From assembly GCA_016935435.1 (NCBI GenBank), contig JAFGQZ010000054.1, forward strand, positions 8,578 through 72,577: a stretch of DNA of 64,000 bases, given 5' to 3'. The DNA is from Bacteroidales bacterium (GTDB lineage: Bacteria; Bacteroidota; Bacteroidia; Bacteroidales; UBA10428). A program made the translations under genes and the position numbers. How positions within the stretch are numbered: position 1 is the stretch's first letter; each line of letters starts with the position of its first letter. The notes under the pieces were generated by a model. That model was not told where the DNA came from. It was given only the letters and a program-made list of their open reading frames with translations, and ran no database searches. Positions 21,656 to 31,837 of this stretch are shown in pieces.

Positions 21656-22594
21656 ATGAAAAGAAAATATGCCATTGGAACCGACATAGGCGGCAGCCAT
21701 ATTTGCGCCGTAGCAATTGATCTGGAAAGCGGCTTGATGTTAACCGACAGCTTTACATCGAGCAACCTTAGTAATAAAGCCCCTGCCGATGAAATACTTG
21801 GCTGTTGGGGCAAAGTGCTTGGTAAAACTATTGCTTTTGTTGAAAAAAAGCAGCTTGCCGGAATTGGCTTTGCCATGCCCGGGCCATTCGAATACGACAA
21901 AGGCATCGCACGTTTTACGCACGAGGTCGATAAGTACGAAAGCCTTAATGGGCTCGATATTGCCCTTGAACTTCAAAATATTCTTGGCCTTGACAACGAA
22001 ACTCATTTCCGGTTTATGAACGATGCAACTTCTTTTGCTGTAGGCGAAGCCTGGAAAGGAAGTGCAGCATCGTGCAAAAAATCGGTTTGCCTTACCCTGG
22101 GAACAGGTTTTGGTTCAGCCTTTATCGATTCGGGCATTCCGGTTTTGGAAGGCGACAATGTGCCCCACATGGGTTGTGTTTGGCACTTGCCATTTATGAG
22201 TGGTATTGCCGACGATTATTTCTCGACAAGGTGGTTTATTAAACGCTATGCAGAGATTTCGGGGCAACGCATGCCCGGGGTAAAAGAAATAGCCATGAAA
22301 GCTGCAACAGATGCCCAGGCCAGGAAGCTTTTTGAAGAATATGGCGCCAATATTGGCGGGTTTATTGCCCCGTGGGTGAAAAAGTTTGGGGCACAATGTA
22401 TTGTTATCGGGGGCAACATTACAAAATCGTTCCATTTGTTCGAGAACATGTTTAAAAGTGCCCTTACGGCTGCCGGCGCAACTCCCGAAATACACCTTTC
22501 GGAGCTGGGCGAAACTGCAGCCATGATGGGAAGCGCCCGGCTTATGGAAGAAAATTTCTGGGTTCGGGTAAAACCCTTACTTTCGAAGATGTAA
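21656..22594 (+). CDS. ROK family sugar kinase
   Basis: IGTDIGGSH, GFAMPGPF, FMNDATSFAVGE, LTLGTGFGSAF. Confidence 0.9.
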   Translation: MKRKYAIGTDIGGSHICAVAIDLESGLMLTDSFTSSNLSNKAPADEILGCWGKVLGKTIAFVEKKQLAGIGFAMPGPFEYDKGIARFTHEVDKYESLNGLDIALELQNILGLDNETHFRFMNDATSFAVGEAWKGSAASCKKSVCLTLGTGFGSAFIDSGIPVLEGDNVPHMGCVWHLPFMSGIADDYFSTRWFIKRYAEISGQRMPGVKEIAMKAATDAQARKLFEEYGANIGGFIAPWVKKFGAQCIVIGGNITKSFHLFENMFKSALTAAGATPEIHLSELGETAAMMGSARLMEENFWVRVKPLLSKM

Positions 22595-22611
22595 AATTTA
22601 ACACCAATAAA

Positions 22612-23769
22612 ATGCAAAACAAAAACTTTAACCCCAAACTTTATCCGGTACTGTTCGGGTTTTTTATTATGGGCTTTGTGGATGTAGTTGGTATTTCAAC
22701 CAGCTACGTTAAGTCCGATTTTGGCCTGAGCGATACACTGGCAAACCTTTTGCCTATGATGGTATTTTTATGGTTTGCCGTATTTTCGGTGCCAACCGGC
22801 CTGTTAATGAACAAGCTGGGGCGCAGGAACACGGTTTTAATCAGCATGGCCTTTACGTTTATTGCCATGCTCATACCATTTTTTTCCTACACTTTTGTAT
22901 TAGTGCTTATTGCATTTGCTTTTTTAGGTATAGGCAATACCATATTGCAGGTGTCGTTAAACCCGCTGCTTACAAATGTGGTGCGTGGCGACAGGCTCAC
23001 CAGCAGCCTTACCCTCGGGCAGTTTATTAAGGCTATAGCCTCCTTTCTTGGGCCAATTATTGCCGGTGTTGCTGCCAGCAAATTTGGCAACTGGAAACTC
23101 ATTTTTCCGGTATTTGCGGTGGTTACCCTTTTATCGTCGTTATGGCTGCTGGCCACCCCTATAAAAGAGTCGGAAGCCAGCCAGGCAAAATCGTCGTTTG
23201 GCGCCTGCTTTGGTTTGCTTGGCGATAAAGTAATTTTAATGCTCTTTTTGGGAATTCTTGCCGTAGTGGGGCTCGATGTAGGGCTCAATACCATAGTTCC
23301 TAAATTTTTAATGGAAAAGTGCCAGATACCCCTGGAAGAAGCAGGGCTGGGCACCAGCCTTTATTTTGCCGCCCGCACCCTTGGTACTTTCATTGGGGCA
23401 ATACTGCTGGTAAAAATTTCGGCTGCAAAGTTTTTCAGGATAAATATTTTGGTTGCTATTGCTGCTATGGCAATAATTTTATTTGTCGGCAACCTGTGGG
23501 GCATTGCAGCAATGGTATTCGTACTGGGCTTTTCCCTGGCAAATGTGTTCTCAATAATTTTTTCGGCTGCTATACAGCGCCTGCCTGACCGTGCCAACGA
23601 AATTTCGGGCTTAATGATTATGGGCGTCGCTGGTGGCGCTGTGTTCCCGTTTCTAATGGGACTTGCTACTGATTATTCAGGTACCCAGTCGGGTGGTATG
23701 CTGGTGTTGTTTGCCGCCCTTGTTTACCTGTTGTTTGCGGCATTCAGGGTAAAAGACGCAAAAAAGTAA
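22612..23769 (+). CDS. MFS sugar transporter (FucP/NagP-like)
   Basis: About 12 hydrophobic helices; GFVDVVG, GNTILQVSLNP, GVAGGAV. Confidence 0.88.
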   Translation: MQNKNFNPKLYPVLFGFFIMGFVDVVGISTSYVKSDFGLSDTLANLLPMMVFLWFAVFSVPTGLLMNKLGRRNTVLISMAFTFIAMLIPFFSYTFVLVLIAFAFLGIGNTILQVSLNPLLTNVVRGDRLTSSLTLGQFIKAIASFLGPIIAGVAASKFGNWKLIFPVFAVVTLLSSLWLLATPIKESEASQAKSSFGACFGLLGDKVILMLFLGILAVVGLDVGLNTIVPKFLMEKCQIPLEEAGLGTSLYFAARTLGTFIGAILLVKISAAKFFRINILVAIAAMAIILFVGNLWGIAAMVFVLGFSLANVFSIIFSAAIQRLPDRANEISGLMIMGVAGGAVFPFLMGLATDYSGTQSGGMLVLFAALVYLLFAAFRVKDAKK

Positions 23770-23802: not shown

Positions 23803-23836
23803 AAAAAAAAACGGAGGGCACATTGCCCTCCGTTTT
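23803..23836. terminator. Bidirectional terminator between MFS and the SusCD locus
   Basis: AAAACGGAGGGCA-CAT-TGCCCTCCGTTTT, with an A-run upstream and a T-run downstream. Confidence 0.8.
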
Positions 23837-23907
23837 CGATTTATGAAAAAACCTTACCAGCATAATCCCATCAAGCAACAAAATATTGCCCGGTTTCAAG
23901 AGATTAA

Positions 23908-24933
23908 TCAGTTAATGCCTATATACTTGTTATGGGTATAGCTTAATGAGAAATTTCCGAGGTTCGAAAAATAAAAGTTAATTAACCTGGCAGGGTTGGT
24001 GGCAATTTCACCCGCACCGGGGGTGTCATCTTTATCGTCCCAGTTCCAGGGGGTATTGGCGCCACCATAGCCCACACTTTTAACAAACGATTTCTGATCG
24101 GCATTAAACATGTTGTTGTTGGTGCGTTGTTGCCACATTTGCCCCGGGGCAAAAATATCGATCAGTTTATAAGGAACAAACTGGTCATAAGCATCCGAAG
24201 GTGCCTCAGCTACATCGTTAAAAGAAGGATAATATTTTACGCCATCGCCATTTATTTTATAGTATGGCCATGCCTTTAATCCATGACCTTTAGCCTCCTG
24301 GGCAGTTACAGGGTGGTTTTCGCCGTTATAATGCTCAAACGACAAAGTGCCATCAATCGATTCCTGGTTAGCGCCAACAGAGCTGCCAGCAGGCACATAC
24401 GAATAGAAATCGGAATGGGCAACAGTTACGGCAGCCTGCAAAGAGCCATAATCCGTGCCATCTTTTTTTATTGATAACAGCATACCCTCTAAATCGTTTT
24501 CGTGCTCTCCCCAATAATATTCTATTGGGTTATCTGTCCAGTCGCGTGGGTGGAAAAAGGCATACAGGATAAACCAGTTTGTAGAAGTTTCAACAACAGA
24601 ATAATACACCACTGCATTTGCCGGGAACCTGCTTAAATTGTTCCAGTTGTTGGTGCCGTTCCAATCGCCATCGTAATCTATGGCTGTAATGTAGTCGGCT
24701 TTCCCGTTCAGGCCATGCGAACCGGTTACATCCACGTCCTGTTGGTGAACAGGTGCCCAGCGTTTAGCCAGTTGGTTATGAGTTACGGCGGCCTTAAGGG
24801 TACCTTCGGCAACCTGGCTTTCTATTATGGATTTTTCTTCCAGAATATCATTGTTATCGCAAGATATGGCAGTTAAAGCAATTATGAGCACTGCCAATGC
24901 TAAAAGAAACGAGAAATTATTTTTGTGTTTCAT
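23908..24933 (-). CDS. Uncharacterised lipoprotein with NPP1/Vps62-like motifs
   Basis: ATG 24933 gives a lipoprotein signal (ALTAISC). Motifs WAPVHQQD, DYDGDW, ILYAFFHPRDW, EHENDLEG, QEAKGHG. Last gene of the susCD operon. Confidence 0.7.
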   Translation of the reverse strand: MKHKNNFSFLLALAVLIIALTAISCDNNDILEEKSIIESQVAEGTLKAAVTHNQLAKRWAPVHQQDVDVTGSHGLNGKADYITAIDYDGDWNGTNNWNNLSRFPANAVVYYSVVETSTNWFILYAFFHPRDWTDNPIEYYWGEHENDLEGMLLSIKKDGTDYGSLQAAVTVAHSDFYSYVPAGSSVGANQESIDGTLSFEHYNGENHPVTAQEAKGHGLKAWPYYKINGDGVKYYPSFNDVAEAPSDAYDQFVPYKLIDIFAPGQMWQQRTNNNMFNADQKSFVKSVGYGGANTPWNWDDKDDTPGAGEIATNPARLINFYFSNLGNFSLSYTHNKYIGIN

Positions 24934-25024: not shown

Positions 25025-26770
25025 TTAATTGTACCCTGCATTTTGTTTAATGTCTTTGTTTACATCCAGTTCAGACTGTGGTATAGGAAAAACCCTTCGG
25101 TAAGGTTCTGAAACAGGTTTTGCCGTGTATGCATTTTTAAAAGTGCCAAACCGGATCATTTGTTGTCTGCGTTCCCCTTCCCAGTATAACTCATAACTTA
25201 TTTCGTTGTATAATACTTGATTGTCGAGTGAGGTTATTGGGGTACCATAATATTTGTTCCCATCAATATCAATACTCCACCTTTTAGTCCTGAGTTCGTT
25301 TATCAGGGCAAGGGCACCTGCTGCATCGCCTTTTCTGAACAATGCCTCGGCACGCATGGTATAAATGCCCCCCAGCCTGAATATAGGCAGGTCGGCACTA
25401 CCTTTCTGCCTTCCGTTTTCGGCATCGTACTCCTGTTTAAAAACCCTTACCCCCCGGTTTATCTGGTTTTGCGTAAAGGAGGCATCGTTCGGGTTATCGA
25501 AGTTCAGTTCGCGGGTAAAGTTCATTTCAAGGTTTGGCGTTTTTTCGGTATATAATTTCTGTACCAGCACCCTGGAATTATCAATTGAATCCATAACAAA
25601 CTTTCCGCTAACAATTATCGGGCCCCATTGTTGGCCTTCCTGAAAACCCCTGTTAAAATGAAAAACACCGCTATAAGGAAGGCTCCCGTCGGTGCCATCG
25701 TTACGAAAAGGCACGCCGCCATTCTTAAGTGTATAGCGGTGGAAGCGTGGATCGGTGCGGTTATTGTCCCAGGTGGCATAGTATTCGGGGGTAATACAGG
25801 TGGCATTTGAACCCCTGTTGTTATCGGGGTTTGCCTTCTGGTTTCGCGCCATTGAAAGGTACGTGATATGGTTTGCCCCCGGGTTGGGGCCAGTGGCCAA
25901 TTGCGAAATAGCAAATATTATTTCAGGGCTTTGGTCGTTGTTGACTCCAAAAATTTCGAAATAATCGCCCTGAAGTTCAAATTTGCCCGATTGGATTATC
26001 TTATCGGTATATTCAATCACTTTATCCATATACCCGCCAGCTATAAAATTAAAGTTAGACGCTTCTTTAAAACGATCGTCATAAACAGCCTTATTCAGGT
26101 ATATCTTTGCCAATAATGCATAAGCAGCTTCTTTGGTAAACCTGCCTGTATGGGTTCCGTTTTCTCCTTTGCTGGCGAGGTTTGGTATTGCATCAAGGAG
26201 CATATCTATACATAACTGTATAGCTTCGTTGCCTTGTTTAATAACCGGGGCATCAACAAAACTCAGGTTAAAAGGGTTCCGGTATGGTACTTTATCGAAT
26301 AAATCAATCAGGTTGTATGTGTATAAAGCCCATAGCCCACAAGCTTCGGCCAGGTACATTTCCTTATTGGCAATATCGCTGTCTTTCAACAAATCGATGG
26401 CGCTTGCAGCTTGCGCTATAGCAGAATTAAGAGATACCCAATTGTCTTCAATTTTCGTATTTGCCGCATTCCAGGTAAACTCATGAAGGGCTTTCCACAT
26501 GCCGCCATCGCGCCAGTCTTCGCCCCTAACAGGCAGCACGGTTTCGTCGGTGGTTAATTGTTGAAGGGCCCAGGTGGTGCCATATTCAGCAAATACTTTC
26601 TCGCCTTTGTCGTAAGCTGCGGCCAAAAGCGATATGCCGGCACCTTCTAATGTATGAATGTCTTGCGACATGATCTCGTCAATTACCTGTTCTTCCAAAT
26701 CGGTACAGGCATTTAAAATTATGCATGCGCTGAAAAAGGCGCAGATCGATCGTATGTTAAAAAAATTCAT
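25025..26770 (-). CDS. SusD/RagB family lipoprotein
   Basis: LNACTDLEE lipobox; GRFTKEAAYALLAKIYLN; ELYWEGERRQQMIRFG; FPIPQSE..QNAGY. Confidence 0.93.
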   Translation of the reverse strand: MNFFNIRSICAFFSACIILNACTDLEEQVIDEIMSQDIHTLEGAGISLLAAAYDKGEKVFAEYGTTWALQQLTTDETVLPVRGEDWRDGGMWKALHEFTWNAANTKIEDNWVSLNSAIAQAASAIDLLKDSDIANKEMYLAEACGLWALYTYNLIDLFDKVPYRNPFNLSFVDAPVIKQGNEAIQLCIDMLLDAIPNLASKGENGTHTGRFTKEAAYALLAKIYLNKAVYDDRFKEASNFNFIAGGYMDKVIEYTDKIIQSGKFELQGDYFEIFGVNNDQSPEIIFAISQLATGPNPGANHITYLSMARNQKANPDNNRGSNATCITPEYYATWDNNRTDPRFHRYTLKNGGVPFRNDGTDGSLPYSGVFHFNRGFQEGQQWGPIIVSGKFVMDSIDNSRVLVQKLYTEKTPNLEMNFTRELNFDNPNDASFTQNQINRGVRVFKQEYDAENGRQKGSADLPIFRLGGIYTMRAEALFRKGDAAGALALINELRTKRWSIDIDGNKYYGTPITSLDNQVLYNEISYELYWEGERRQQMIRFGTFKNAYTAKPVSEPYRRVFPIPQSELDVNKDIKQNAGYN

Positions 26771-26781
26771 ATTCTGGTTTA

Positions 26782-29700
26782 TTAAAATTTAATTGTTGTT
26801 CCGAACATAAATGTCTTGGCAGAGGGGTAGCTTGCATAATCCATACCAAGGGATGAATTGCCGTTTACGTCGCGCGAGGTGTTAACTACTGGGTCGAAAC
26901 CGCTGTATTGGGTCAGGGTGAACAGATTTTGTGCACTGGCATAAACAGTGAGCTGGTTTATAGCCTTTATTTTACTTTCGTTAAAGGTATATGCGAACCT
27001 GATATTGTTAAGGCGCAGGTAGTCAGATTTTTCCAAATAATAATCGGAAACAACTAAGCCGTCGTTTGCCGATTGTCCGGAATTCAGGACATCTTGCGAA
27101 ATGTTTTTGCTGCTAAACAGGTTCGACATGGTATTGGTGGCCAGTTTCGTGTTGTTAAACAGGTAAGCCCCTTTCTGTCCGTTTATTGAGAACGACAGGC
27201 TGAAATTTTTGTAGTCGATTATGCTATGTAAGCCAAAAGTGAACGTGGGAAGGGCACTTTCAATTAAAATTTTTTCAGGCCCGTAAATTGAAAGCCCATT
27301 TTCATCAAACCCCTGGTGATCCCATAAATAGAAAGAACCTGCTGCATACCCGTTTTTATAAATATTGACCGTTTCGCCCGAAACACCCGAACCCGAAACA
27401 CTTCCCGAGAGTATTTCGCTTACTGGCAGGTTCTTTACCTCGTTATCGAGGGTAGCACAATTGACATCGACATACCATTTAAAATCGCTCGATTTTACAA
27501 TGTCGCTGCCAAGGGTAACTTCAATACCTGTGTTTACAATTTCCCCATTCATATTTGTCCATATATCAGAAAAGTTTGGCTGTATTGCAGGAATTAGTAA
27601 TATGGCATCGGTTGTGCTTTTTCTAAAGTAATCAAGTGTTCCTCGTAGTTTTCCGCTAAAGAAATTGAAATCGGCCCCCAGGTTTGTTTGCGTTACAACC
27701 TCCCATTTTAAGTCGGGGTTACTGGTACGGGTATAAATAATCCCGTTAATCAGTTCCTTGTCTTTGCCGTTCATGTAATATCCGTTGGAAGAAGTAATAG
27801 AGTATGTTTCCTGGGTTACCTTATTAGGCACTTCCTGGTTGCCGGTTTGCCCCCAGCTGGCGCGAAGTTTTAAGTCGGAAATTGCACCCTGTTGATTAAG
27901 GAAATTTTCCCGTCCGATGTTCCATGCAACGGCCAGCGATGGAAAATAACCGTATTTATTGTTCTCGCCAAAACGGGTTGAACCATCGGCACGCAGCGAG
28001 GCAGTAAGGTAATATTTTCCACTGTTCGAATAATTAATACGCCCAAAAAACGATTGCAGCTCATTGATTTCGGCATACCCCCTTGCCTCAATTTCTTCCT
28101 GGTTGCCTGAAATTCCCGGGTTATTTGAAGGATCGATGCCATTGTCTTCGAATTCGGTAACACCGAATATGGTTCCCGAACGATTGAATTTTTGGTACGA
28201 AAACCCCGATAAGGCAATAATCCTATTGTTTTTAAACTGTAAATCATAGGTTAGGAAGTGTTCAATTAGCGAGTTATGCATTTCGTTTTTTTGTTCAAAA
28301 TACGAACCCGTGTTCTCTATTTCGGTTGTGTTGGGGAAATAGGTAGTGTTCCGTTCCGATACAGAGCGATCGACTCCCAGGTTTAACTGATATTCCAGCC
28401 CTTTCACCAACCGGTATTTAGCCTCTATATTGCTTAGTACACGCAGGGTGTTGGCATGGTCGTCATAAAAGTGGAGCATGTAAACAGGGTTGTAGCTCCC
28501 TTCGGTGTCGAAATCGTATATTTCACCATTTTGGTCATAAACCGGCCGGGTAGGGTTGGCTTTAAGCATGTGGGTGATAAGTTCTCCTGTTGCCCCTCCG
28601 TTGTCGCTTGTTGGGGCGCCGTTATCTTTCAGTTGCGAGGCGGTTAGATTGATATTAACCCTTAAACGTTGATCGTTAAAGAACGACTCTGTTACATTAA
28701 ACCTTCCGGCTAACCGCTCAAAAGCACTTTCTTTTATTATACCTTCCTGCCCCATGTGGCTAAGCGACATGTAGTAACTTCCGGTTTTAGAGCTGTTGGA
28801 GAATGAAAAATTGTTGTTGGTAGTATAGGCAGTTCGCATAATGGCATCTTGCCAATCGGTTGAAGCATTCGGCACGTGGGTGTGCTCGGGGTTTACTTTT
28901 GCATATTCTGCACCTGTAAGCAGATCGATTTTATTCGCAATTTTCGAAACCCCTAGGTATGAGTCGAAAGTGAAATCGGCTTCGTTGCCCTTTCCCTTTT
29001 TTGTTGTAATAATTATTACACCATTAGAACCACGTGCGCCATATATTGCAGAAGCCGAAGCATCTTTTAAAACGCTAATCGACTCAATATCGGCTGGGTT
29101 GAGAAAATTCAGAGGGTTTCTGGCCCTGGAAGTCCCTATCCCATCGTTTACCCCGGCAGGGCTAACATTGTCGTTGCTTAAAGGAACACCATCGACTACA
29201 AATAGCGGATCGTTGCCTGAGCGGATTGAGCCAGCCCCACGGATTAGCACATCGATGCCTGCCCCTGGTTCGCCGCTGGAGTTTATTATATGCACACCTG
29301 CAAGCTTTCCCTGGAACAATTGTTCGGGCGACGATACTACACCGTTATTGAAGGAACCAGCATTTAAGCCGTCAACCGATCCGGTTACATCCGCTTTGTT
29401 TTGGTTTGCATAGCCCACTACAACTACTTCGTCGAAATCGAACGATTCCGGCTCAAGCGAAACGTTGAGCACTAAATGGCTTCCAGCTTCCAAAGCGAGG
29501 GGCTTATAACCAATATACGAAAATTTTATAACAGCCCCGGGGAAGGCCGCAATAGAATATTTGCCGTTTATATCTGCAATGGTGCCTTCTTGTGTGCCTT
29601 TTACTGAAACGGTTACCCCAACAAGCGGTTCGCCGGTTTCGCTGTCGGTTACCGTACCACTTATGGTTTGTTTTTGTAGTTTCTTTACAGAAACCTTGTA

Positions 29701-30027
29701 GTCGCCAATGCGGTACTCGAAACCTGCCTGCGACGACAGGTTGTTTAAAACAGAACGCAGGCCTGTATTTTCATATTCTATCGAAAAGGTTTCGTTGGCG
29801 TTTCGAATTTCTCCCCCATAGGCAAATTCATAGCCTGATTTTTTTTCAAGTTCATTAAAGATTTTTTCCAGGCTGGCATCTTTGATATTTATTGATATTG
29901 CCGTATCGGTATTTGCCTGAGGGAAAGCAAAACCGGTAAATACGAACAGGAATAGATAAAGTATTACGAAAATCCTGTTATTTTTGTATTTCACAAGTTT
30001 TTTTGCCGACTTGTTTAAATAATTCAT
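26782..30027 (-). CDS. SusC/RagA TonB-dependent transporter with N-terminal signalling (STN) extension
   Basis: STN domain, CarboxypepD_reg-like domain, LKDASASAIYGARGSNGVIIITTKKG, NPDLKWE, terminal F. Confidence 0.96.
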   Translation of the reverse strand: MNYLNKSAKKLVKYKNNRIFVILYLFLFVFTGFAFPQANTDTAISINIKDASLEKIFNELEKKSGYEFAYGGEIRNANETFSIEYENTGLRSVLNNLSSQAGFEYRIGDYKVSVKKLQKQTISGTVTDSETGEPLVGVTVSVKGTQEGTIADINGKYSIAAFPGAVIKFSYIGYKPLALEAGSHLVLNVSLEPESFDFDEVVVVGYANQNKADVTGSVDGLNAGSFNNGVVSSPEQLFQGKLAGVHIINSSGEPGAGIDVLIRGAGSIRSGNDPLFVVDGVPLSNDNVSPAGVNDGIGTSRARNPLNFLNPADIESISVLKDASASAIYGARGSNGVIIITTKKGKGNEADFTFDSYLGVSKIANKIDLLTGAEYAKVNPEHTHVPNASTDWQDAIMRTAYTTNNNFSFSNSSKTGSYYMSLSHMGQEGIIKESAFERLAGRFNVTESFFNDQRLRVNINLTASQLKDNGAPTSDNGGATGELITHMLKANPTRPVYDQNGEIYDFDTEGSYNPVYMLHFYDDHANTLRVLSNIEAKYRLVKGLEYQLNLGVDRSVSERNTTYFPNTTEIENTGSYFEQKNEMHNSLIEHFLTYDLQFKNNRIIALSGFSYQKFNRSGTIFGVTEFEDNGIDPSNNPGISGNQEEIEARGYAEINELQSFFGRINYSNSGKYYLTASLRADGSTRFGENNKYGYFPSLAVAWNIGRENFLNQQGAISDLKLRASWGQTGNQEVPNKVTQETYSITSSNGYYMNGKDKELINGIIYTRTSNPDLKWEVVTQTNLGADFNFFSGKLRGTLDYFRKSTTDAILLIPAIQPNFSDIWTNMNGEIVNTGIEVTLGSDIVKSSDFKWYVDVNCATLDNEVKNLPVSEILSGSVSGSGVSGETVNIYKNGYAAGSFYLWDHQGFDENGLSIYGPEKILIESALPTFTFGLHSIIDYKNFSLSFSINGQKGAYLFNNTKLATNTMSNLFSSKNISQDVLNSGQSANDGLVVSDYYLEKSDYLRLNNIRFAYTFNESKIKAINQLTVYASAQNLFTLTQYSGFDPVVNTSRDVNGNSSLGMDYASYPSAKTFMFGTTIKF

Positions 30028-30124: not shown

Positions 30125-31141
30125 TTATATTTTCCTCCTTTCTTTGTAGGGGTTAAACACTAGTATTGTACCATCCGGCTGGAAATGATATTCAAAACCG
30201 GCAATAAATTTAAGATCGTCCATAACAGTTATAAAACTGGCATTCTGGTACGATGCCTTAACTGTTTCTTTTAATAAACCAGTATCGGTGCAGTTTATCT
30301 TTAGTGCGTATGAACGTTCGAGAGTGGCAAAAGCTTCTTGAAGGGTTTCGTGACTGAAAGTTATTTTGCCCTGAAGCCAGCCAATACGCTCGTCCACATT
30401 GGCAGTAGTTTTACTTATGCTTTTCTCGGAAAGACGAAAAACAGATTGTTCGCCTTCTTTGAGAATAATATTTTCGGCACCCGATGCGCCATTTTGTGCC
30501 GCACTCACCTGAACACGGCCATCTGTAACAGTAACCCGACTATTGCTATTGGTGTATGCCTCTATGTTAAAAGAGGTTCCCAGAACAGTTACACAAACAC
30601 TGCCGGTTGAAACAACAAATGGCCTTGCAGAATCTTTCGCTACCTGAAAAAAGGCTTCGCCGGTTAATCTTACTTCGCGTACCGGGCCATTAAAATGCTT
30701 GGGGAAAGAAAGTTCTGAACCTGAGTTTAAAACAATAAGTGTGCCATCGGAAAGGCTTATCTTTTGTTTCACTCCATTTGGAACAAATACAGTGCAAAGC
30801 TTATCGGTGTAGCATAAAACCGGAGTGCTTGATGTTAGTTGCCTGGCCAGAAATCCTATAGATGCGAGTACTAGCAACGAGGCGGCAATTTTATAGAATA
30901 ATGCTTTCTGTTTTCGTTTCTCGAGGTGGGGCAGGGGTGTTCTATCAACAATAAGGCTGGTTTTTTTTTCAATGCCGGCTTTTATTTTATCCCCCAGGCT
31001 TTTGGGAATTGAAATATTTCTACTGTCGGCCAACAGCGATTCGGTCCATTGTTCAAATATTTCTTTACCTTTTTCGTTGGGTATTCCCCTGAAGTAATCA
31101 CAGAGTTGATGTTCCTTATTTTTTTTATCTGTTTTGCCCAT
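30125..31141 (-). CDS. FecR family anti-sigma factor
   Basis: TM helix (KIAASLLVL), LSDGTLIVLNSGSEL, REVRLTGEAFFQV, VLGTSFNI. Confidence 0.93.
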   Translation of the reverse strand: MGKTDKKNKEHQLCDYFRGIPNEKGKEIFEQWTESLLADSRNISIPKSLGDKIKAGIEKKTSLIVDRTPLPHLEKRKQKALFYKIAASLLVLASIGFLARQLTSSTPVLCYTDKLCTVFVPNGVKQKISLSDGTLIVLNSGSELSFPKHFNGPVREVRLTGEAFFQVAKDSARPFVVSTGSVCVTVLGTSFNIEAYTNSNSRVTVTDGRVQVSAAQNGASGAENIILKEGEQSVFRLSEKSISKTTANVDERIGWLQGKITFSHETLQEAFATLERSYALKINCTDTGLLKETVKASYQNASFITVMDDLKFIAGFEYHFQPDGTILVFNPYKERRKI

Positions 31142-31276: not shown

Positions 31277-31837
31277 TCAGCAAGCAAGTAATTTTTGCCA
31301 ATGTGGCTTAATTAAGTTAACAGCGTTTGTTAATTGGTTTTTTACTGTTTGTTTCGATAATTTAAGTTTTTCTGCAATTTCATTTATTGACAGGTCTTCG
31401 AACTTATTCAGGATAAAGATTTCACGGCAGCGTTCGGGCAGTAGGTCGATTTTTTTATTTAGGATTTGCTGGTTTTCAATCAATACATATTTCTGTTCCG
31501 GAGTTGCCCAGCTTATTTTTTGCAGGTCGTGAATAATTCTTTGTGCATATTGCACAAACAATCTTTCGCGTCTGATTTTATCGTAAAGCTTATTTTTAAT
31601 AATGCCAAAAATATATTGCTTAACAGAGGTGCAAATTGCAATTTGTTCACGCTTTATCCATAAATCAATAAAGGAATCTTGCACCAGATCTTCAGCTTCG
31701 GAAGGAGAGTTTGTAGCTTTAAGGGCAAATAAATAAAATTCCTTCCAATATGCAGCAAAAATATCGTTAAAAGCATTCTTGTCTCCATTTTTGAGCTTTT
31801 CTGTAAGATTTAGCTGGTTTTCTTTATCCATTTTCAT
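31277..31837 (-). CDS. ECF RNA polymerase sigma-70 factor
   Basis: AEDLVQDSFIDLW (region 2); LPERCREIF..LSINEIAEKLKLSKQTVKNQL (region 4). Confidence 0.95.
   Translation of the reverse strand: MKMDKENQLNLTEKLKNGDKNAFNDIFAAYWKEFYLFALKATNSPSEAEDLVQDSFIDLWIKREQIAICTSVKQYIFGIIKNKLYDKIRRERLFVQYAQRIIHDLQKISWATPEQKYVLIENQQILNKKIDLLPERCREIFILNKFEDLSINEIAEKLKLSKQTVKNQLTNAVNLIKPHWQKLLAC

Follow-up and report, generated by a model that had tools for sequence, protein, structure and literature searches.

A lipoprotein with a predicted NLP fold at the end of a probable PusC1/PusD1-type uptake operon in a Bacteroidales bacterium

A 64,000-nucleotide stretch of the genome of a Bacteroidales bacterium, hereafter the window, to whose positions all coordinates refer unless another locus is named, carries on its minus strand an operon whose last gene encodes a 341-residue lipoprotein, NLPL. 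The preceding genes encode an extracytoplasmic function (ECF) sigma factor, a FecR-type anti-sigma factor and the SusC-type and SusD-type components of a TonB-dependent uptake system. NLPL is predicted to adopt the fold of the Nep1-like proteins (NLPs), which to our knowledge are known only as toxins that kill plant cells and as immune triggers, docking on the sphingolipid glycosylinositol phosphorylceramide (GIPC).

Organisation of the operon and type of its transporter

The genes and features of the operon, all on the minus strand, are the following.

31277..31837, minus strand: ECF-type sigma-70 factor, the operon's first gene (Pfam Sigma70_r2, Sigma70_r4_2, Sigma70_ECF)
30125..31141, minus strand: FecR-type anti-sigma factor (Pfam FecR, FecR_C)
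26782..30027, minus strand: SusC-type TonB-dependent transporter, probably of the PusC1 type (Pfam Plug, TonB_dep_Rec_b-barrel, CarbopepD_reg_2)
25025..26770, minus strand: SusD-type surface lipoprotein, putative inositol-phosphate binder of the PusD1 type (Pfam SusD_RagB)
23908..24933, minus strand: NLPL, 341-residue lipoprotein of predicted NLP fold (translation; AlphaFold2 model; Foldseek and VIA-align matches; Pfam NPP1 at 19.1 bits)
24859..24933, minus strand: signal peptide and lipobox, NLPL residues 1-25 (read from the sequence)
24661..24678, minus strand: DYDGDW, NLPL residues 86-91, a possible calcium-type loop in which D88 and D90 are invariant
24484..24570, minus strand: block ILYAFFHPRDW...GEHENDLEG, NLPL residues 122-150, holding D131, H144, D147 and E149
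24409..24423, minus strand: VAHSD, NLPL residues 171-175, with H173 and D175 invariant
23807..23837, minus strand: intrinsic-terminator-like hairpin at the operon end (14-pair stem with 7 G-C pairs, followed by a T run)

The open frame of NLPL extends from 25041 to 23908, and the Met codon at 24933, which is also the start of the 30 aligned relatives, was chosen as its beginning. The N-terminus reads as a signal peptide with a lipobox, whose Cys25 is the only cysteine of the protein and lies in a column kept in at least 90% of the 30 relatives; the residues that follow, DNNDILEE, form an acidic stretch which may correspond to the surface-export signal of the Bacteroidota. The terminator-like hairpin lies 71 bases past the NLPL stop codon and the next gene, for a major facilitator superfamily (MFS) transporter ending at 23769, is convergent with the operon. 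NLPL is therefore the only cargo after susD, as a first-pass annotation, made from the letters of this DNA alone, had claimed for an ECF/FecR/SusC/SusD locus. The G+C content is flat across the operon (0.43-0.45). The motifs quoted in the same annotation were all found, at residues 86-91, 122-132, 142-150, 171-175 (VAHSD) and 212-218 (QEAKGHG), and it was right in recognising no carbohydrate-active enzyme (CAZyme) motif, since no CAZyme family matches NLPL and the sole Pfam match is to NPP1.

The closest described relative of the operon is the Pus1 locus of Flavobacterium johnsoniae. Pus1 consists of PusD1, PusC1, an ECF sigma/anti-sigma pair and a phosphatidylinositol-specific phospholipase C (PI-PLC), along with a calcineurin-like esterase that has been likened to the fungal GIPC-PLC, and its PusCD1 pair is required for growth on phosphatidylinositol (PI) and glycerophosphoinositol (PMC8115612; bioRxiv 10.64898/2026.09.03.749221). 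PusC1/PusD1 obtain phosphorus by importing the inositol-phosphate head groups of phospho(inositol)lipids; PusD1 binds inositol 1-phosphate (IP1) via D84, W85, D87, Y307, R312, R321 and T323, and the PusC1 loop residues S482, G884 and S886 touch IP1 (bioRxiv 10.64898/2026.09.03.749221). According to the same preprint, CAZymes are less frequent beside PusD genes; it also raises, but leaves open, the possibility of an extracellular phospholipase C (PLC) step before import.

Four of five Flavobacterium genomes hold full-length best matches to the window SusD at 47-49% identity (E ~1e-155 to 1e-165), in loci that comprise Metallophos, PI-PLC, ECF, FecR, SusC and SusD genes in the order published for Pus1 (PMC8115612 Table 1; bioRxiv 10.64898/2026.09.03.749221). 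The identity to the SusD proteins of loci with the Pus1 architecture is 47-51%. All seven PusD1 ligand residues occur at their exact published numbers in the Flavobacterium SusD proteins; in the window SusD the corresponding positions are D85, W86, D88, Y304, R309, R319 and S321, six of them identical and the seventh a conservative Thr to Ser change. The window SusC, which carries an N-terminal signalling extension (FecR_C/STN-like, residues 36-110), is 51% identical to the Flavobacterium Pus1-type SusC and 56% identical to the SusC of another genome of the window's order (G335). When a one-residue offset is assumed, the IP1-touching residues fall on S481, G883 and S885 of the Flavobacterium protein and on A479, G881 and S883 of the window SusC, of which two of three are kept.

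An unbiased sample of 400 other genomes of the class was searched for SusD matches at E<=1e-80, and eight genomes had one. Six of these eight loci carry PI-PLC, PF04185 or GDPD-like genes: PI-PLC is present in four, three of which also have a long Metallophos gene, ECF and FecR, while one has a PF04185 phosphoesterase and another a GDPD-like gene with genes resembling iolJ/iolB/iolC after it; in the other two nothing was recognised. At the locus with the GDPD-like gene (L119, 5843-14325), the SusC/SusD genes, with a SusD 37% identical to that of the window, are followed by GDPD_2-like, class-II aldolase, KduI/IolB-family and PfkB-kinase genes, a set that looks like iolJ/iolB/iolC and appears to tie this SusD clade to inositol catabolism.

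The SusD identity, the kept ligand residues, the order of the loci and the phosphodiesterase flanks together allow us to predict with high confidence, on the strength of sequence comparison, that the window pair is of the PusC1/PusD1 type and not a glycan SusCD. The window operon shares with Pus1 the order of ECF sigma factor, FecR, SusC and SusD, and has the inositol-phosphate site of PusD1, the ECF/anti-sigma pair and the transducer-type SusC that characterise it. It differs from Pus1, which has the PI-PLC and the calcineurin-like (GIPC-PLC-like) esterase and no NLP-fold gene, in that it carries NLPL and neither esterase. As the Pus transporter has already been described, the window operon is a rare variant of a described system, and the suggestion in the first-pass annotation of an undescribed one does not stand, the Pus loci having been published in papers of 2020 and 2026. 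Neither the Pus system nor the NLP fold is new in itself. Literature searches that combined NLP-like proteins with Bacteroidota lipoproteins, phosphorus and DUF946 returned nothing on the NLPL family, no report of an NLP-fold protein in a Pus or SusCD locus or of a function for the NLPL family was found in print, and the terms 'NLP' and 'necrosis' have no occurrence in the main text of the preprint (bioRxiv 10.64898/2026.09.03.749221). Polysaccharide utilisation loci have genes for surface glycan-binding proteins and surface enzymes after susD; the products resemble NLPL in operon position, lipoprotein nature and the presumed role of a 'front end' to SusCD, but their folds are unrelated to that of NLPL, which is presumed to take a phosphorylated lipid head group and not a polysaccharide as its ligand.

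Predicted fold of NLPL and its relationship to NLPs

An AlphaFold2 model of NLPL built on 30 relatives has a mean pLDDT of 86 and a pTM of 0.82. Comparison of the model with 48,161 PDB representatives using VIA-align gave only two chains with Z >=5, both of them NLPs: 3st1_A (MpNEP2), with Z 13.7 and a root-mean-square deviation of 3.3 over 177 residues, and 9wsc_A (PcNLP485), with Z 12.7; the next chain has Z 3.4. Foldseek returned 15 matches at E<=0.001, all 12 listed being NLP structures, and the next listed match is at E 0.18. Neither search placed a glycoside hydrolase (GH), polysaccharide lyase (PL) or esterase fold among the matches. NPP1- and Vps62-labelled clusters are the nearest named neighbours of NLPL in the ESM Atlas, as leads only. 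The first-pass annotation had guessed at a distant protein of the NLP/Vps62 fold and had proposed AlphaFold and Foldseek as a check; both the solely NLP matches of the model and the absence of a GH, PL or esterase fold agree with that guess. On the model, NLPL is assigned the NLP beta-sandwich fold.

At the level of sequence the relationship is distant. Pfam NPP1 (PF05630) matches residues 82-222 of NLPL on profile positions 20-161 of 197, at 19.1 bits (E 0.0015) and below the gathering cut-off of 21; the genome-wide search gave 20.2 bits, and 7 of the 30 relatives match NPP1 at E<=0.1. NCBIfam returned noise only, and sequence searches of the PDB with NLPL and with a 30-sequence profile gave nothing relevant (best pseudoazurin, E 0.18, and aldolase, E 1.4). 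NLPL is thus related to the NLPs at superfamily level, as a distant member, and lies outside the NPP1 family as delimited by Pfam.

Sixty columns are invariant among the 30 relatives, which are about 50% identical and come from three phyla; D131, H144, D147, E149 and H173 are invariant in all 30. For comparison, three true NLPs from actinomycete genomes that also carry the NLPL family (L082-L084) were aligned with it using hhalign, and the match is weak (E 0.011, probability only 3.8%). In this weak alignment D131 falls on the Asp of YFEKD, H144, D147 and E149 fall on the His, Asp and Glu of GHRHDWE, and H173 falls on the conserved His of the NLP 'QHS/SAHG' stretch, taken as the position of NLPPya His159; D131, D147, E149, H173 and H144 would then correspond to NLPPya Asp93, Asp104, Glu106, His159 and His101 (E 0.011). 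A shallower hhalign run against the same three proteins gave a meaningless 26-column match, and the 120 NLP homologues gathered to deepen the profile are 71-93% identical to the query and added little diversity. In NLPPya the Mg2+ ligands are Asp93, Asp104, Glu106 and His159, and the GHRHDWE heptapeptide is a defining feature of NLPs and crucial for toxicity (PMC6743777). In HaNLP3 the same crevice contains a phosphate ion near the sugar site, NLPs have membrane-inserting loops with W155 and other residues (PMC6743777), and the inositol-phosphate-linked glycolipid GIPC is what they recognise (PMC6743777 and NLP abstracts).

The pocket of NLPL, as aligned, is to be compared with that of the NLPs of solved structure (NLPPya, 3GNZ and 5NNW; MpNEP2, 3ST1; PcNLP485, 9WSC), which share the predicted fold of NLPL, are its only clear PDB matches and carry the cation-pocket residues Asp...His-x-x-Asp-x-Glu...His, the putative counterparts of which in NLPL are weakly aligned, and invariant in the 30 relatives. 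The differences are several. NLPL stays below the Pfam cut-off, it is about 100 residues longer, and the stretch that aligns with the heptapeptide is EHENDLE (residues 143-149) in place of GHRHDWE, with only H, D and E kept (3/7). A disulfide of the NLP type, which is conserved in type 1 NLPs, is ruled out, because the single cysteine is the lipid anchor. NLPL is lipid-anchored and encoded in a TonB-dependent uptake operon, whereas NLPs are free secreted toxins, and its host is not a plant pathogen. By eye, DYDGDG or DYDTDG near the N-terminus of the three actinomycete NLPs resembles the DYDGDW of NLPL, which Pfam and hhalign place about 12 residues further on.

Vps62 (DUF946, PF06101) is a further possible relative, as bacterial Vps62 clusters were found at TM 0.52-0.54 in the Atlas structure search, some fused to ricin-B like members of the NLPL family (a lead). 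Pfam Vps62 matches none of the 30 family members at E<=0.1, and no solved Vps62 structure surfaced in the NLPL fold searches. The actinoporins and fungal lectins, which the literature names as fold relatives of NLPs, scored in the noise range (7pud, Z 2.7; 9eym, Z 2.6; 2ofc, Z 2.4), and no membership is claimed for NLPL.

Distribution of the family and its neighbourhoods at Pus-like and phosphodiesterase loci

A word-indexed search gave 1130 NLPL relatives at E<=0.001 among 2768 candidates; in an exhaustive search by profile, clusters at 50% identity numbered 1593 at E<=0.001 and 1170 at E<=1e-10. The bacterial family to which NLPL belongs is thus large, with no fewer than 1593 such clusters, and has neither a name nor a Pfam model. 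Among the 120 relatives listed, 9 are fused to a ricin-B lectin and 13 to a beta/gamma-crystallin domain, and none has a precomputed Pfam domain on the core. When 46 long members were scanned, the partners found were RTX repeats, FG-GAP, fn3, type IX secretion system (T9SS) tails, dockerin, H-lectin and leucine-rich repeats, as well as a GH18 chitinase with ChiC, GH30 and a GDSL lipase; in 15 of the 46 no partner family was found at E<=1e-6. The fusion partners mark the family as an extracellular module. Fusion to C2 domains is an Atlas lead. One protein of 2522 residues (P0144) contains an H-type lectin, Big_9 and cadherin-like domains and the family domain in three stretches, one of which passes Pfam NPP1 at 32 bits and so forms a sequence bridge between the family and NPP1.

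The family is widespread in Myxococcota and Micromonosporaceae, soil bacteria of predatory or antagonistic habit, where its members occur alone as lipoproteins or secreted proteins. It is sparse around the window: NLPL relatives were found in none of 300 other genomes of a class-wide sample and in one of 400 other genomes of the window's order, and a metagenome contig scan gave one distant relative, on a contig of 1956 bases. The operon is accessory in this lineage, since neither an NLPL gene nor a PusD1-type SusD is present in four further genomes of the window's family, among them a 99% complete genome from the same genus. A DNA synteny search of four same-family genomes recovered only a purF-like gene and short conserved pieces and was uninformative for the operon. 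In a FastTree phylogeny of 80 sequences (79 loci and the window NLPL, with one split-gene locus left out), each of the three phyla forms one group; the window NLPL falls in a Bacteroidota clade of 14 rows with Hymenobacter, Spirosoma, Pseudochryseolinea and others, and its pairing with the Bacteroidales locus L009 is an unsure long-branch join.

The neighbourhoods were compared for the best 80 of 503 confirmed genome matches, which include 37 Bacteroidota loci, 32 of them having no less than 8.6 kb of sequence upstream; Pfam was run on 11 loci and specific queries on the remainder, and clustering of neighbours on a reduced set gave mostly clusters of shadow frames from high-GC genomes. SusC and SusD lie directly upstream of the NLPL relative in 7 of the 37. 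The link to susCD, for which the first-pass annotation had proposed a survey of homologue neighbourhoods, was thus borne out for part of the Bacteroidota and fails in the other phyla (0/43). In Marinoscillum pacificum (L030) the locus comprises ECF, FecR, SusC, SusD, a crystallin-fused NLPL, a purple-acid-type Metallophos gene and GDPD_2, and its SusD has 7/7 of the PusD1 residues; in Pseudochryseolinea flava (L005) it comprises SusC, SusD, Metallophos, NLPL and a GDPD_2-like gene. Five Hymenobacter loci have ECF, a type I phosphodiesterase (NPP), FecR, SusC, SusD and NLPL, with a divergent SusD in which, of the PusD1 positions, D87 alone is kept and T323 is represented by Ser.

Phosphoesterases also accompany the family where SusCD is absent. 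In Spirosoma soli (L010, 3174-10987) a PAS sensor kinase, a PI-PLC (PF16670), an 898-residue PF04185 phosphoesterase and NLPL lie head to tail on one strand with no SusCD, and in Fulvivirga sediminis and a Marinoscillum metagenome-assembled genome (MAG) a purple-acid-type esterase adjoins the relative. Altogether a phosphoesterase stands beside an NLPL relative in at least 10 of the 37 Bacteroidota loci. In Flavobacterium loci L015-L029, L043, L046 and L074 (about 7500-11300) the family member carries a fused beta/gamma-crystallin domain, and a full-length polyphosphate kinase (Ppk) is the divergent neighbour in 11 Flavobacterium loci. The Ppk-like Fjoh_3851, to which the neighbour Ppk may correspond, is induced by phosphate starvation (PMC8115612).

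A second kind of NLP-fold gene occurs in the same type of locus. The G335 locus (L101) has ECF, FecR, SusC, SusD (63% identical to the window SusD), Metallophos and the following gene.

L101 5905-7239, minus strand: lipoprotein of 444 residues whose C-terminal part is an NPP1 domain (23.3 bits, the cut-off being 21) with GHxxDWE, the N-terminal half being without assignment

This lipoprotein has no BLASTP relationship with NLPL and is of the canonical NPP1 type, and two separate NLP-fold branches are therefore found in the same locus type. It is a near-singleton with only 13 relatives in a large protein collection, one of them an 'NPP1 family protein' in Flammeovirga. Just past the G335 locus (L101, 3231-5700) lie genes for an AAA_21 ATPase and a RloB-like protein, an Abi/OLD-like defence pair. 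NPP1-family matches at 21-24 bits were obtained in 4 of the 400 other genomes of the class sample. The arrangement of NLPL with a Pus-type operon is rare.

At 12367-23769 of the window a hybrid two-component system (HTCS) regulator on the minus strand is followed on the plus strand by GH76, GH125, GH97, ROK kinase and MFS transporter genes, an alpha-mannan-type cluster without a SusC/SusD of its own in the window. At 38093-63927 there are very large secreted enzymes with T9SS tails, namely a GH81 with CBM6, CBM35 and F5-8 modules (1553 residues), a GH16/SKN1-like enzyme (1245 residues), a second GH76 and a LamG protein, together with a GH38 and a GtaA-like six-hairpin protein, and this region looks like an arsenal for the degradation of fungal cell walls. 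A Bacteroidales MAG (locus L009, 7681-17417) carries a ricin-B-fused member with a xylose-isomerase-like TIM barrel and a Gfo/Idh/MocA oxidoreductase upstream (inositol-catabolism-like) and a GH92 alpha-mannosidase and SusC downstream.

It could be supposed from such flanks that NLPL binds or cuts fungal (phospho)mannan together with the convergent GH76/GH125/GH97 cluster, which ends 139 bases from NLPL in a window with no other SusCD, and the ricin-fused relative near GH92 and SusC at L009 would be in keeping with this. However, the two convergent units stand under different regulators (HTCS and ECF/FecR), the window SusD keeps the inositol-phosphate residues of PusD1, no mannan CAZymes were found near the orthologous loci L030, L005 and L101, and PusD genes are reported to be less often CAZyme-flanked (bioRxiv 10.64898/2026.09.03.749221). 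A role in mannan use is accordingly considered very improbable.

Another alternative is that NLPL is a membrane-damaging effector, which acts like the cytolytic NLPs against fungi, oomycetes, algae, amoebae or plants and stands after SusD incidentally or for co-regulation. The NLP fold and the cation-pocket residues would suit such a protein, as would the wide occurrence of stand-alone secreted or lipoprotein members in predatory and antagonistic soil bacteria, the lectin fusions (and the C2 fusions of the Atlas lead) and the richness of the window in fungal-wall enzymes. A lipid anchor is, however, a poor placement for making pores in another cell; the transducer-type SusC and the terminator immediately after NLPL indicate co-function with the transporter; the family recurs beside phosphodiesterases in several lineages; and the heptapeptide crucial for toxicity is conserved at only 3/7 positions. 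An effector of this kind therefore seems improbable.

Putative role of NLPL in the harvest of inositol-lipid phosphorus

The operon structure, the transporter orthology, the conserved residues, the recurrent neighbourhood and the fold are computed, and the account that we favour, tentatively and at somewhat less than even confidence, is that NLPL serves as a surface capture protein for (glycosyl)inositol-phosphate lipids and feeds PusCD; its surface exposure, its ligand and a non-enzymatic action are what we infer. NLPL would be displayed on the cell surface beside PusCD, where its cation pocket would grip the (glycosyl)inositol-phosphate head group of PI, plant GIPC or fungal mannosylinositol phosphorylceramide (MIPC), much as NLPs do on plant GIPC. 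By tethering membrane debris and loosening the lipid, it could present the head group to PusD/PusC or, where they are present, to esterases. Ligand at PusC would then signal through FecR to the ECF sigma factor and induce the operon, a trans-envelope-signalling logic that follows from the domain content and from the account of ECF/anti-sigma pairs in the preprint (bioRxiv 10.64898/2026.09.03.749221). The lipid source is likely to be eukaryotic, and since the window is crowded with fungal-wall enzymes (which give context and are not evidence of substrate), fungal inositol-phosphoceramides are as plausible a source as plant GIPC. The nutrient-foraging idea of the first-pass annotation thus stands in part, with a PusC1/PusD1-type SusC/SusD in the window and relatives beside PI-PLC, GDPD-like, calcineurin-like and NPP phosphodiesterases.

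A non-catalytic role complementary to the phosphodiesterases is favoured because the NLP-fold gene coexists with them in five lineages and does not replace them. No characterised NLP is known to be an enzyme. The window operon has no co-located phosphodiesterase or phosphatase, and such genes are present in the orthologous loci L030, L005, L101, L095-L097 and L112-L115. The window's genome is a metagenome-type assembly of 107 contigs and 93.5% complete; among the related phosphorus genes, only an NPP homologue and Ppk were found in it. This NPP homologue is encoded elsewhere in the window's genome, on contig C52 (64148-65815), and is closely related (E 5.5e-108) to the NPP phosphodiesterase of the Hymenobacter ECF/FecR/SusCD/NLP-fold operons. 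As the PI-PLC, GDPD_2, PF04185 and Metallophos types of the related loci were not detected in this genome, the head group must be freed here by something else.

It is in this connection that an enzymatic role for NLPL has to be weighed. In the same system, NLPL could be a new metal-dependent hydrolase of NLP fold, a phospholipase C or D or a head-group glycosidase acting on PI, GIPC or MIPC, that cleaves the head group at the surface for PusCD and stands in for the PI-PLC and calcineurin-like esterase of the Flavobacterium Pus1. The 60 invariant columns include H128, R130, D131, H144, E145, D147, E149, H173, D175, H217 and K220; NLPL is the sole cargo of the operon, in a 93.5%-complete genome where no PI-PLC, GDPD_2, PF04185 or related Metallophos was found; members of the family are fused to modules of the kind commonly seen alongside catalytic or toxic domains (ricin-B, crystallin, T9SS, RTX, GH18, GH30 and GDSL lipase); and a possible extracellular PLC step is raised in the preprint (bioRxiv 10.64898/2026.09.03.749221). 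On the other hand, phosphodiesterases coexist with the NLP-fold gene in L005, L030, L010 and G335, which points to complementary and not redundant functions, and no hydrolase fold was matched, the best non-NLP chain having Z 3.4. No NLP-fold protein is known to be catalytic. The enzymatic reading, the main rival of capture, is considered rather unlikely.

Capture of the lipid head group by NLPL, which remains our preferred interpretation, has several observations to contend with. The sequence homology to NLPs is weak (19.1 against 21 bits, 7/30 relatives, hhalign 3.8%) and the heptapeptide is kept at 3/7 positions. With their many His, Asp, Glu and Arg residues, the 60 invariant columns resemble those of an enzyme more than those of a lectin, and the 93.5%-complete genome has no detected PI-PLC, GDPD_2, PF04185 or Metallophos gene of the types in related loci. 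The Ser of the PusC EL3 loop is Ala in the window SusC. The SusCD link is absent in 30 of the 37 Bacteroidota loci and in all 43 actinomycete and myxobacterial loci among the best 80 of 503 matches, and as most loci are without SusCD, the general job of the family cannot depend on TonB import. None of the eight PusD-like loci of the class sample has an NLP-fold gene, none of its four NPP1 matches lies near the SusC/D or phosphoesterase queries within flanks of 8-20 kb, and the G335-type lipoprotein was found in no other of the 400 genomes of the order.

More broadly, the NLPL branch may represent a new class of metal-dependent enzymes or receptors for (glycosyl)inositol-phosphate lipids (plant GIPC, fungal MIPC and PI) that supplies the missing extracellular step of PusCD, a proposal which we regard as doubtful. 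For phosphorus cycling, it would offer a candidate for the extracellular step that the work on PusCD left unresolved. An NLP-fold protein is here wired into a TonB-dependent uptake operon with a transporter of the type that recognises inositol phosphate, which makes testable the hypothesis that the head-group pocket of NLPs harvests phosphorus from eukaryotic inositol lipids, and offers an initial clue to the function of a family that has no Pfam model and at least 1593 clusters. An additional use of the NLP fold, in the harvest of phosphorus from eukaryotic lipids, is suggested by it. If the broader proposal is true, a function would be offered for the many non-toxic NLPs, and the cytolytic NLP toxins of plant pathogens would be weaponised relatives of a nutrient-harvesting module.

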